A DNA stretch of 26,721 bases from a virus (Duplodnaviria; Heunggongvirae; Uroviricota; Caudoviricetes): IMG/VR virus record IMGVR_UViG_2778260996_000006; one strand, written 5' to 3'. The position numbers and the translations under genes are program-made. The notes under the pieces are model-generated. The model saw only the letters and a list, made by a program, of their open reading frames with translations. It was not told the origin of the DNA and searched no databases. This document shows, piece by piece, positions 17,280 through 20,150 of this stretch (the stretch's first letter is position 1; each line of letters starts with the position of its first letter).

Positions 17280-17804
17280 TTACCGGGACTGTTCTATTTG
17301 TCGGACACCAGCCAACTGGTTATTCGCCTTCTCGATGGCTGCCAACAGTGGGTTAATCCACAGAACAGCCTGGCAATATGTCAACGTTCTGGTGGTAGTG
17401 GCACGATCACCGGCTGAGTCAATGTCCCCGGAATCGGCGTGCAATGCGCTGGCGCGTAAACGGTTCGCGTAGTTGAGCAACCCGACAGCAATATCAACAG
17501 GAACAGGGAAATCACAGTTCTTTTCACGGAGCAGAACCTCACGGTATTTGATGACTGTCTTCTCGTGACCGATGTCGACCAGAGAATTTAATCGGCTTGC
17601 GTTTTCTGCTATCTGGTTAAAACGATTGAAGTTTAATGCCTGATTAGCTATCACTTTCCCTTGATATTCAGCTTCACCTTCCGCTTTATCAGCCCGCAAC
17701 TTTTCTGCCTGATACTTGCTGTGGTAATGGTTTGCAGACCAGACGAGCGCCCCAAAGGCAGAGAAGAAAAATGCCGCGATGACAATCTTATAAGTCAGCT
17801 TCAT
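17280..17804 (-). CDS. Rz: i-spanin (Rz-like)
   Basis: N-terminal TM anchor, periplasmic body, position after endolysin, embedded lipoprotein ORF. Confidence 0.7.
   Translation of the reverse strand: MKLTYKIVIAAFFFSAFGALVWSANHYHSKYQAEKLRADKAEGEAEYQGKVIANQALNFNRFNQIAENASRLNSLVDIGHEKTVIKYREVLLREKNCDFPVPVDIAVGLLNYANRLRASALHADSGDIDSAGDRATTTRTLTYCQAVLWINPLLAAIEKANNQLAGVRQIEQSR
17381..17527 (-). CDS. Rz1: o-spanin (Rz1-like outer-membrane lipoprotein, 48 aa) embedded in the +1 frame of Rz
   Basis: GTG start with GAGG 9 nt upstream; MKRTVISLFLLILLSGC lipobox followed by Pro-rich mature peptide; missing from the ORF track. Confidence 0.6.
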   Translation of the reverse strand: MKRTVISLFLLILLSGCSTTRTVYAPAHCTPIPGTLTQPVIVPLPPER

Positions 17805-18267: not shown

Positions 18268-18609
18268 TTACTCCTTAGAGCCACCAAACTTGTTACCGAT
18301 TACTCGCATTGCAGCCCCACGAATAGCATCGACACCGATCAGCCCAACACCACCACCAATGGCAACAGAAAGAGATTTAGGCCATCCAACATACTCAAGA
18401 GCGGATGCAAAGGTCAGCGTCAGAGCACCACAGAGCAAAATCTCAAGCGTTTTTCGTTTCCAGCCGCCGCCACCGCCAAAATAGGCAATGCGCAAGCCAG
18501 CCATAACAATTGACATAACCACTGCGCCCAACGGCGTATCTCCACGCCACCAACTTTGTAAGAGTTCCAGTAAGTCAGGCCAGGAATGAGGAGCATTGTG
18601 CATTTTCAT
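18268..18609 (-). CDS. S: class I holin with dual-start (MKM) motif
   Basis: Start trimmed to ATG 18609 (GGAGG upstream); MKM start as in lambda S; lambda-S-like hydrophobic core. Confidence 0.8.
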   Translation of the reverse strand: MKMHNAPHSWPDLLELLQSWWRGDTPLGAVVMSIVMAGLRIAYFGGGGGWKRKTLEILLCGALTLTFASALEYVGWPKSLSVAIGGGVGLIGVDAIRGAAMRVIGNKFGGSKE

Positions 18610-18710
18610 ACTTCCCACCTCCGCCATTACGGGGTGTTGTTGAAAGGCGGGCCCTGCGTATACGCCCGTAGGATTGGGTTATGAGCCGTCCTTCGGTGGG
18701 CCCTGAATAC

Positions 18711-18733
18711 AAAAAAAGTTCGCCATAGCGAAC
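18711..18733 (-). terminator. intrinsic terminator in the late leader (tR'-like)
   Basis: Minus-strand GUUCGC-UAUG-GCGAAC hairpin (plus 18718-18733) followed by 7 U (rc of 18711-18717), about 85 nt upstream of the holin start. Confidence 0.5.
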
Positions 18734-19218
18734 CTTGTTAAATTTGTTAAAAAAGGAAGTTATTTAACATAATGTACGTTATAGGAACCACACGATCCCC
18801 GCTCGCAATAGATTTGCGATGAAAGGCCTATTTAATCAACTTAAGTGGTCCAGAATGACGAAATTCGAGTGAATAAAAGGTGCATAAAAAAGGGCAAAAA
18901 CTGCATAGCGTTTTTTCGCAGCGAAAGCCCTGTTTTATTAGCTTTTCCCCAGAATGGGGCAATAAAAAAGGCCCCCTTGCGGAAGCCTCTTCGTGATGAA
19001 CTGTTTTCAACAGATATCAGGCTAATCGGCTTTTTGGAATTCCACAACTATTTTTTATCTTACCTTGATGCCTGATGCCGTCAGATGTTTACGACAGTCC
19101 TGAATACCTTCGTTATAACCCGCATCGTAGAAGCTATCCGGCTTTGCCTTCAGCGCAGGAAGCGTAACGCTGGTAGCTCTTCGTTCGGCCAGAACACCTG
19201 CCTGAAAGAGTGTCCACA

Positions 19219-19395
19219 TCAACTGAACTGCTGAATCACAGTAAGTAACATCTTCACTGTACAATTCTCGTTCAATCCGATGCCAAGTTGAGCCTTCATT
19301 GATGCGCCAATATTACCTTTGACCTGCAACGACAGGTCTGGGTACCTCTGTTCCATGAAGCTTTCAAATCTGTTGCGAACGCTGATCAGAGCCAT
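19219..19395 (-). CDS. small hypothetical ORF (58 aa) downstream of Q; coding status uncertain
   Basis: ATG 19395 with AAGGGA RBS 31 nt after Q stop; overlaps a second open frame (19055..19264) with no ATG start. Confidence 0.3.
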   Translation of the reverse strand: MALISVRNRFESFMEQRYPDLSLQVKGNIGASMKAQLGIGLNENCTVKMLLTVIQQFS

Positions 19396-19426
19396 CTGGT
19401 TCCCTTACGTGATTGATTGCTGGATA

Positions 19427-19849
19427 TTATGCCGCCGAGCAGCTCCTACGCAAAGTCCTGATAGCCTGAGGCTTTGACTGAACCGACTGATCCATTTCGA
19501 GCACCACATCCAGCATGGCTAAGCAACCGTCAATAAATCCCTCTGCCGCCTGAAGCCTCTTCAGAACGTGGGTGTGAGATACGCCGAGCTTCTCACCCAT
19601 CGCCCGCACGGGCATGGCCTGGACGTAATGCCACTCAAGGAGCGTGCACAGATACGGATCTTTTTTCTTCAGGCAGCTCATAGCGGAGTTGATGATAAGA
19701 CCGTCATTGTCACTGCATTTCAGCCTTCCAGACTGCGTCGCGGGTAGCAGATTCTTAAACCCGGCTGCAACAGGAGGAAAGTAGACGCTACCACCTTCAC
19801 TCGCTGCCCAGCCACCCCAGCGCTCTAAAACCTGTTGAATATTACGCAT
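19427..19849 (-). CDS. Q: late-gene antiterminator Q (140 aa)
   Basis: Close resemblance to enterobacterial prophage Q/QuuD proteins as recalled (QQVLERWGGWAA..., VAAGFKNLL, LKRLQAAEGFIDG); positioned upstream of lysis genes. Confidence 0.85.
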   Translation of the reverse strand: MRNIQQVLERWGGWAASEGGSVYFPPVAAGFKNLLPATQSGRLKCSDNDGLIINSAMSCLKKKDPYLCTLLEWHYVQAMPVRAMGEKLGVSHTHVLKRLQAAEGFIDGCLAMLDVVLEMDQSVQSKPQAIRTLRRSCSAA

Positions 19850-19978
19850 AGCTCTGACCTCTACGTTTTGCTACGAAAAAATTTTCTGAGAACCACGTCT
19901 GTTTATCCGTGGGTGTGGATAACGCAGTTCCGATTCGCTTATTACACGCTGTTATGTGCAAAAAATTCCTTGTTCGGC

Positions 19979-20150
19979 CTGTACCAATCTGTACCCACCT
20001 GTACCAGCTCTTTTCAAACCTTTTCCCCAAGCGACTTATATATATATATGGGGTTCTTAGTAATTAGGTTGGTACAGATGGTACAGTTGGTACTGACCTT
20101 TAAATTCAATTAGTTAAAATGTACCAACCTCTATTTTGAGGCTGGTACAG
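19979..20150. promoter_or_regulatory. putative replication origin: CTGTACC/GGTACAG iterons flanking a (TA)n tract
   Basis: Three CTGTACC at 10-bp phase (19979, 19989, 19999), TATATATATATAT at 20037-20049, three GGTAC(A/T)G at 9-bp phase (20071, 20080, 20089), further copies at 20120 and 20144. Confidence 0.45.

Follow-up and report, generated by a model that had tools for sequence, protein, structure and literature searches.

We analysed a 26,721-nucleotide stretch of phage DNA (IMG/VR record IMGVR_UViG_2778260996_000006; Caudoviricetes), referred to below as the window, and focused on the interval between its antiterminator gene Q and its holin gene. All relevant genes lie on the minus strand, coordinates are window positions, and L-numbers denote the related loci that were compared. 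Upstream of Q lies a gene for a 730-amino-acid VapE-type primase/helicase; downstream, a lambda-family holin is followed by a GH24 endolysin, Rz and terminase. An earlier note, made from the sequence alone, had put the gap at about 800 bp, which agrees with the 799 nt to the start of the longest holin open reading frame (ORF; 18627) and the 817 nt to its likely start (18609). Running from Q towards the holin, the interval contains a frameshifted small gene, a predicted late promoter (pR') overlapped by a palindromic box, three terminator-like hairpins and a structured element in the holin 5' untranslated region (UTR) (Table 1). The 1.6-kb Q-to-holin segment is 100% identical to a prophage of Escherichia coli FDAARGOS_1059 (NZ_CP066032), the source strain of the window, and is found in 62 other complete E. 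coli genomes at 99.4–99.9% identity.

Table 1. Features of the Q-to-holin region, in the order of minus-strand transcription. RBS, ribosome-binding site.
Feature	Position	Strand	Details
Antiterminator Q gene, 140 aa, Q21/Q933W family	19427..19849	-	Upstream edge of the region; PF06530, phrog_79
Q-to-small-gene spacer, 31 nt	19396..19426	-	RBS AAGGGA at 19406-19401; 0-34 nt in loci of the same Q clade
Frameshifted copy of a 113-aa gene (PF26207 / phrog_343 / PGAP 'phiTE_015 family protein')	19055..19395	-	Intact 342-nt gene in relatives
ORF1 of the broken gene	19219..19395	-	39 native + 19 out-of-frame codons (58 aa); TGA 19221-19219; PGAP WP_157912310.1
1-nt deletion site (A lost)	between 19279 and 19278	-	CATC|GGATT where relatives read CATCAGGATT
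ORF2 of the broken gene, 54 aa	19055..19219	-	ATG 19219-19217 corresponds to M60 of the intact protein; PGAP WP_000269847.1
Palindromic box TTGTGGAATTCCAAAA, 16-bp near-palindrome	19032..19047	-	Overlaps the -35; candidate Q-binding element
Predicted late promoter, -35 hexamer TTGTGG	19047-19042	-	Overlapped by the palindromic box
Predicted late promoter, -10 hexamer TAGCCT	19019..19024	-	17 nt after the -35; nearly all aligned loci keep a TAnnnT at constant spacing from the box
Terminator T1 (tR' position)	18964..18992	-	Stem GGCTTCC/GGGGGCC, loop GCAA, T6; fold -19.1 kcal/mol, z -3.5
Terminator-like hairpin T2	18886..18931	-	AGGGC...GCCCT, T6; fold -18.3 kcal/mol, z -3.5
TTGCGA-N19-TATAAC string of the earlier note	18778..18808	-	Judged not to be the late promoter
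21-mer ATAACGTACATTATGTTAAAT	18762..18782	-	Identical in window, L147 and L247; flanks variable
Terminator T3	18709..18736	-	AAGGTTCGC tatg GCGAACTT, T-run; scan match; fold -10.4 kcal/mol, z -3.7
Structured holin 5' UTR element	18649..18703	-	Closed by GGGCCC...GGGCCC; fold -25 kcal/mol, z only -1.9
Lambda-family holin, first late gene	18268..18609	-	TIGR01594; PGAP call of 113 aa; dual start 18609/18603

The window's Q matches PF06530 (Phage_antitermQ) over the full length of the model (1–118 of 118, E 5e-42) as well as phrog_79. PF06530 is the single family in which Yin, Kaelber and Ebright (2019) place both Q21 and Q933W. The protein is 42–44% identical to the Q of Shiga toxin (Stx) phages and 26% identical, over 72 residues, to that of phage 21. 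A phmmer search with it against PDB sequences found nothing.

The palindromic box begins 7 nt after the stop codon of the small gene and opens a promoter cassette that is conserved in sequence and position. In all loci of the window's Q clade that carry the small gene, TTGTGGAATTCCAAA stands 2–7 nt after that gene's stop, TAnnnT lies exactly 17 nt after TTGTGG, and a GC-rich hairpin, usually with a T-run, follows 50–70 nt further on. Roughly 90 PF06530 Q loci were examined, and the 52 non-redundant sequence combinations among them share one architecture: the box, about 7 variable nt, TAnnnT, 2 nt, TGnTAAGAGTGGTYAC and a terminator. The Stx phages Min27 (L168) and Sakai Sp5 (L249) are built in the same way (GTTTACGATCGTAAAA, TATCAT, GA, TAAGAGTGGTTAC). 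Among relatives the distance from the Q stop codon to the cassette ranges from -3 to 2248 nt. L177, a locus of the same Q clade that has no small gene, carries the identical box inside the 3' end of Q, and its -10 (TAATCT) contains the Q stop codon. Likewise, in L247 and L213 (Q ~43% identical) T1 and the rest of the leader come directly after Q, with the promoter inside the Q 3' end. In 933W/Sp5 it is the box (TTTACGATCGTAAA) that contains the Q stop codon.

We located the late promoter by comparing about 60 related loci and the annotated phage 21, and set the register of its start by alignment with the Stx phages Sp5 and 933W. For Sp5, Sy et al. (PMC7547250) describe a 258-nt RNA running from PR' to tR' and an RNase E cut, GU|AUU, at +173; as the absolute coordinates of that paper are about 140 nt off the RefSeq version used here, only its distances were taken. 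In the Sakai sequence, the only fitting GTATT (L249 817–821) and the T-run of tR' (898–903) both lead to L249 646 as the start; this base, the fifth of TAAGAG, stands 7 nt beyond TATCAT. Because the two landmarks agree, the TAnnnT hexamer can be identified as the -10. By this alignment, the window has downstream of Q a putative constitutive sigma-70 promoter homologous to the mapped pR', with transcription predicted to start near 19012 (±3). This places pR' directly after the broken gene, some 240 bp upstream of the promoter proposed in the earlier note; since the cassette begins after its stop codon, the small gene would lie upstream of pR'. Where a pause element would lie, for which phage 21 has TAAGCTG, relatives carry an invariant TGnTAAGAGT and the window reads TGATATCTGT; a sigma-dependent pause, to which TGATATCTG would contribute, would be expected near +10 to +20. 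The annotated features of phage 434 and mEp390 contained no usable pR'.

The box itself, with half-sites GGAATTCC in the window and GTAATTAC and GTCATGAC as alternatives, is exact in nine of nine distinct loci with a Q 64–100% identical to the window's, whether or not the small gene is present; its chance expectation in the window, allowing 2 mismatches, is 0.15. Across the PF06530 Q loci at least eight box classes can be told apart (TTGTGGAATTCCAAAA, TTG[TC]GTAATTACAAAA, TTGTGTCATGACAAAA, TTGTGTTATAACAAAA, nCGCGGTCCGCA, AGTGCGCTACGCAAAA, TTTTCGTTACGAATTT and GTTTACGATCGTAAAA), and each pairs with one class of Q helix-turn-helix, with no exception in the 52 non-redundant loci, which are phylogenetically related. 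In these loci the 7 nt after the box vary freely; the -10 and TGnTAAGAGT are constant. Where a lambda-type Q precedes the small gene (L153, L155, L156) there is no such box, and the identical box in L177, where the small gene is missing, indicates that this element travels with Q and not with the small gene. Because box class co-varies with helix-turn-helix class, we regard the box as a candidate Q-binding element; among loci related by descent such co-variation is suggestive rather than proof. An exact 15-mer scan of viral contigs returned mostly chance matches, and a protein-anchored collection of loci was used instead.

Three hairpins of the intrinsic-terminator type stand between the predicted promoter and the late genes. 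T1, at the position of tR', shows compensatory stem changes in L147, L247 and L213 and would end a leader RNA of ~48 nt. In the same three loci T2 is retained in a shifted register (CAGGG/CCCTG), and in L247 T3 is kept with a changed stem (GGCTCGC/GCGGGCC). T3 is the element that the earlier note had singled out as a clear minus-strand terminator at 18711–18733, and the conserved hairpin and T-run bear this out; it is the third of three, the hairpins at 18992–18964 and 18931–18886 having been overlooked together with the conserved promoter box at 19047–19019. The 386-nt leader as a whole is unusually structured (z -4.9). Within it, the element directly upstream of the holin RBS has one compensatory pair in L247 (GGGCTC/GAGCCC). 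At the gathering threshold, Rfam gave no match anywhere in the window; at E ≤ 1, the leader drew only sub-threshold, terminator-like matches, on the T1 hairpin. In L147, homology to the window ends about 20 nt past the 21-mer ATAACGTACATTATGTTAAAT, where a different gene begins.

A small gene separates Q from the predicted promoter. In nearly all relatives it is a single 342-nt gene, 31 nt after Q, with a 113-residue product (WP_001174014.1) that PGAP names 'hypothetical protein' or, in newer runs, 'phiTE_015 family protein'. The window reads CATCGGATT where the relatives read CATCAGGATT, and one A is thus missing after codon 39. The earlier note had supposed that a single-base frameshift near 19260–19310 splits a protein of roughly 110 residues, and it fared well: restoring one A at 19279/19278 gives 113 residues, and the second frame is open upstream to about 19310, with a stop at 19315–19313. 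The two small ORFs it listed (19219..19395 and 19055..19264) also exist, but the second does not lack an ATG, as had been stated; one lies in frame at 19219–19217. The ORF1 stop and the ORF2 ATG overlap as TGATG (19221–19217), and PGAP annotates exactly this pair of ORFs with a 1-nt overlap. ORF2 holds the conserved C-terminal motif, the most conserved of the family, and termination followed by re-initiation at the overlapping UGAUG could yield this 54-residue product from the frameshifted allele. With the intact frame lost, the window copy reads as a pseudogene or a split gene. Programmed frameshifting was rejected, as the sequence has no slippery site and almost every allele reads in frame.

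A 61-nt probe identified 63 carriers of this locus among 5426 complete E. coli genomes, and the listed carriers have the extra base except for FDAARGOS_1059 and strain 48 (~61 of 63 intact). Examples of strains with the whole gene are ETEC H10407 and O103:H2 12009. A more drastic loss is seen in ON470582 and three relatives, in which the small gene is nearly all deleted, and what is left is its RBS and ATG, joined in the wrong frame to its final ~57 nt; the remaining leader is 98.8% identical to the window's, and the Q of ON470582 is 89% identical. These four 689R2-type records are probably predicted prophages, since the sole paper found to name the record series, by its member vB_EcoS-473R12, places its phages in the genomes of clinical isolates, and we therefore dropped them as proof of viability without the small gene. 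Frameshifted in the window and deleted in four predicted prophages, the gene looks dispensable.

The conceptually repaired protein matches phrog_343 (unknown function) at E 2.8e-18 over residues 5–112, and PF26207 ('Phage_phiTE_015') is a precomputed match on all 14 close homologues. In the three homologues that have locus tables, the precomputed match is marked 'weak', and a search of the small protein against local Pfam and NCBIfam found no match even at E ≤ 10, the local Pfam copy being without the PF26207 model; for these two reasons the window's subgroup appears peripheral to the family model. A match to phrog_15831, 'head closure', was set aside as a mis-transferred label, as it covers the C-terminal motif only and the gene never lies in a head module. 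The family has very few members: a word-indexed search of 5.8 billion proteins returned 14 clusters, 16 family representatives were found at E ≤ 0.001 among 1.84 billion proteins, and the 50,697 deposited phage genomes contain a homologue in one Vibrio phage only. Conserved columns include AVQLMW and P-[DE]-x-[FY]-YDAGYNEG. The AlphaFold model is small and helical (mean pLDDT, its per-residue confidence, 72) and has no significant fold, PDB, BFVD or defence-system match; a search for literature on phiTE_015 or PF26207 found none.

The most telling trait of the family is its genomic position. Where Q is 64–100% identical to the window's (Rahnella L007; metagenomic L008, L009 and L150–L154; E. 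coli), the gene lies 0–34 nt after Q, and it keeps this place while the replication and lysis genes differ between loci. More distant members have it behind the promoter-terminator cassette that follows Q (L159, L153, L155, L156, L160). Among these, L159 has a PF06530 Q of 53% identity; in L153, L155 and L156 the upstream gene resembles lambda Q, judged by eye from the translation, and is followed by a lambda-like promoter string (TTGCAC-17-TAAATT in L153, similar in the other two) and a terminator; and in L160 the Q-like gene is a different one. L158 has upstream neighbours that resemble a HicAB pair. Lysis genes follow the small gene in all cases. The PF26207 protein hence adjoins not only PF06530 and lambda-Q-like Q genes, at least two unrelated families, but also a third, untyped Q-like gene. 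Because this place next to several unrelated kinds of Q is conserved, the small gene is a position-conserved resident of the Q-to-lysis junction, neither random cargo nor tied to one Q family. As it lies 31 nt after Q, in the same orientation and upstream of pR', it would belong to the Q transcription unit and not to the late leader, and it is probably transcribed and translated as the last cistron of the Q-containing early transcript; the spacer leaves no space for a promoter and a terminator. Our best guess at its role is an accessory protein that the phage can do without, produced at the switch from early to late expression. The earlier note's decayed cargo gene in the late leader accordingly survives as a frameshifted accessory gene, but one that is placed upstream of pR', in the Q unit, and that belongs to a narrow, position-conserved family.

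In L155 (2810–3420) the small gene is preceded by a lambda-like Q that has a pR'-tR' of its own, and followed by a further copy of the transcribed leader of 933W type (TAAGAGT...GTCACACAGCTTA...terminator), which is without the palindromic box and looks like a recombination scar. An apparent fusion of Q and the small protein, P0019, turned out to come from the remains of a decayed prophage beside an integrase (L250 2990–3440), in which a 5'-truncated Q, an internally deleted small gene and a TTGTGGAATTCCAAAAA box form one ORF of 143 residues; we discarded it as evidence of a functional link. Transfer RNA genes occur shortly downstream of the small gene in L008 (4425–4500; Gly), right after the first terminator of the pR' cassette, and in L156 (3423–3724; Gln, Met, Gly), after the terminator that follows the small gene. 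Phage 21 and 933W have tRNAs in a similar place; the window leader has none.

Four other explanations bear on parts of this picture. If the frameshift were a sequencing or assembly error, the small gene would be intact in the real phage, and the rarity of the deletion (~2 of 63 complete genomes) would fit, single-base indels being the commonest assembly error. The missing A, however, lies outside any homopolymer run (CATCAGG), the identical deletion is present in at least six assemblies, among them FDAARGOS_1059, strain 48 and three IMG/VR isolate-derived contigs (L148, L149, L157), and strain 48 and L157 have an additional, linked T>C change in common. Because the deletion recurs in separate assemblies, two of them with a shared linked polymorphism, we judge it a real, persisting allele, and an artefact is barely credible. 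Hardly stronger is the arrangement drawn in the earlier note, with the promoter at 18808–18778, the hairpin at 18736–18709 as tR' and the broken gene as cargo inside the late leader. Its strings are there (TTGCGA at 18808–18803, 19 nt, TATAAC at 18783–18778), a good terminator hairpin lies ~60 nt downstream, and ATAACGTACATTATGTTAAAT, just past the proposed -10, is perfectly conserved in L147 and L247. Against this, the 19-nt spacer falls outside the sigma-70 range of 16–18, the consensus scan does not list the site, and neither hexamer is kept in L147 and L247, which have CGACGA and GTGGCG, respectively, at the -35 position and GATAAC at the -10. With the cassette homologous to the mapped 933W/Sp5 pR' sitting at 19047–19019, we consider this model very unlikely.

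An improbable but more substantial possibility is that the small gene is a moron, driven in the lysogen by its own promoter, so that its decay would reflect a lost host-benefit function. A promoter-like string with 18-nt spacing, TTGCGT-18-TAATAT, does lie at the Q end, and its -10 is kept in the 689R2-type prophage; the gene comes and goes among otherwise near-identical phages (deleted in ON470582 and three relatives, frameshifted in the window) and is flanked by terminators in other phages. Yet this weak string in the 3' end of Q is the sole candidate, it is not listed by the scan, and as it lies in coding sequence its conservation is uninformative. The element that follows the gene is the pR' cassette and not a dedicated terminator. 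A shared promoter would not fit in relatives whose Q-to-gene gaps are 0–20 nt and whose Q C-termini differ, and the placement behind a pR'-tR' cassette in L159, L153, L155, L156 and L160 suggests phage-programmed rather than lysogenic expression. The alternative that deserves most attention, though we still think it doubtful, concerns the box: it could be an operator for another dimeric regulator of phage or host, or a recombination junction, with Q bound at another site, such as the stretch between -35 and -10. Dimeric repressors typically have palindromic sites, the box lies at a mosaic boundary, and the Q-binding element of phage 21 is a direct repeat downstream of the -35. The box class nonetheless tracks the Q helix-turn-helix class in 52 of 52 non-redundant loci while the 7 nt up to the -10 vary freely, and the box accompanies Q even in L177, which has no small gene, and is missing after a lambda-type Q.

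With these alternatives weighed, we put at about 80% the reading in which a temperate E. coli phage has here an ordinary late control region, Q-antiterminated and of the 933W/21 type, with three terminators and a frameshifted accessory gene upstream of the promoter. Under this reading, Q and then the small gene would be expressed from the Q-containing early transcript, with the loss of one A leaving a 58-residue N-terminal product and possibly the 54-residue C-terminal one. Transcription from pR', whose -35 lies within the box, would start near 19012. Without Q, RNA polymerase would halt at T1, after ~48 nt, or failing that at T2 or T3. Once Q is loaded at the promoter, the polymerase would pass T1–T3 and the structured 5' UTR and go on to transcribe the dual-start holin gene, the remaining lysis genes and those for morphogenesis.

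A number of observations weigh against this reading. The window's start is placed by homology, its -35 and -10 each match the consensus at 3 of 6 positions, the consensus scan does not list the site, and the initially transcribed sequence, TATCTGTTGAAAAC..., differs from the TAAGAGTGGTYAC of most relatives. T1 may be inefficient in vivo, because in Sp5 the mapped 3' end lies at +258 and not at a similar early hairpin (L249 668–695, textbook-looking, with a T7 run, ~27–52 nt beyond the PR' start); either that hairpin is a poor terminator or very short RNAs escaped detection. The box may bind something else, given that the phage 21 element is not a palindrome over the -35. The small gene could be expressed independently from the possible TTGCGT-18-TAATAT promoter that overlaps the stop codon of Q, and neither structure nor family gives a hint to the role of the small protein.

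The closest known counterparts are 933W and Sp5, which share with the window a PF06530 Q, a box of palindromic form across the -35, an equally spaced TAnnnT -10, a TGn plus a second -10-like hexamer at the start, and terminators ahead of the late genes; all would be expected to make a short leader RNA constitutively. They differ in the box (TTGTGGAATTCCAAAA in the window, GTTTACGATCGTAAAA in 933W/Sp5) and in what is transcribed: the window leader aligns with that of Sp5 only at the promoter and is otherwise unrelated to the leader that gives the StxS RNA, with ~48 nt predicted against 258 nt mapped. The window region has neither tRNA nor toxin genes, and it has a small gene between Q and the promoter. 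Phage 21 (OL657228) presents an order that the window is predicted to match, of Q, promoter with an internal Q-binding element, sigma-dependent pause element at the start, terminator and lysis genes, and its annotation gives a -35, the Q-binding element, a -10, the start, the pause element and a terminator ~46 nt downstream of the start. Its Q is far more distant, however, and its element, lying between -35 and -10, has the form of a direct repeat (ATTGAGCA AATGAGCA); the conserved element of the window is an inverted repeat covering the -35. The pR'-6S RNA-tR' region of lambda likewise combines a Q-to-holin gap of ~0.7–0.8 kb, a short terminated leader RNA and a slot that accepts extra genes. 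There, Q is of an unrelated family, extra genes are taken up downstream of tR' and not upstream of the promoter, and a single tR' is well characterised, against three terminator-like hairpins in the window.

The genes around the region complete the picture. The holin matches TIGR01594 (E 7e-40), the alignment beginning at residue 8 of the long ORF, and has a dual start, ATG AAA ATG (Met-Lys-Met, 18609–18601), behind the Shine-Dalgarno sequence GGAGGTG; both traits are those of a lambda-family class I holin. The longest ORF begins at 18627, where the ATG overlaps GGAGGTG, and the real start is likely the lambda-like 18609/18603. Further downstream, an ORF of 53 residues with a lipobox-like LLSGC (17381–17542) lies out of frame inside the Rz-like gene (17280–17804), the usual Rz/Rz1 spanin arrangement. 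On the other side, between the VapE gene and Q (19850–20135), are two clusters of short direct repeats built on TGGTAC/GTACC, one with 3 copies of ~14 nt (19980–20003, 20120–20133) and one with 3 copies of 11 nt, 9 nt apart (20068–20096), near a hairpin with a T-rich tail at 20149–20120. These repeats look like iterons, perhaps of a replication origin, or like a regulatory site with a terminator.

A broader proposal goes beyond the window, and we offer it tentatively, as something we do not expect to hold in full. It is that the PF06530 Qs of the 933W branch read a 16-bp inverted repeat over the -35 of pR', with half-sites that co-evolve with the recognition helix (at least eight pairs of box and helix-turn-helix class), and that the PF26207 protein is a dedicated factor of the early-to-late or lysis transition and not random cargo. 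If true, Q would be loaded as a symmetric dimer, a geometry unlike that of the direct-repeat Q21 element or of the lambda and 82 elements.

For annotation, the two 'hypothetical proteins' after Q should be one pseudogene. For a widespread group of E. coli prophages, present in 63 of 5426 complete genomes, the site of the late promoter can be given fairly confidently. The comparison also singles out an uncharacterised family of tiny proteins, which keeps faithfully to its place between Q and the lysis genes, as a subject for the study of lysis timing and late transcription. Finally, the matching of promoter boxes to Q variants amounts to a map of the Q933W family that can be put to the test; as this family controls Shiga-toxin expression, the map could help to predict pairs of Q and late promoter in strains that carry several prophages.

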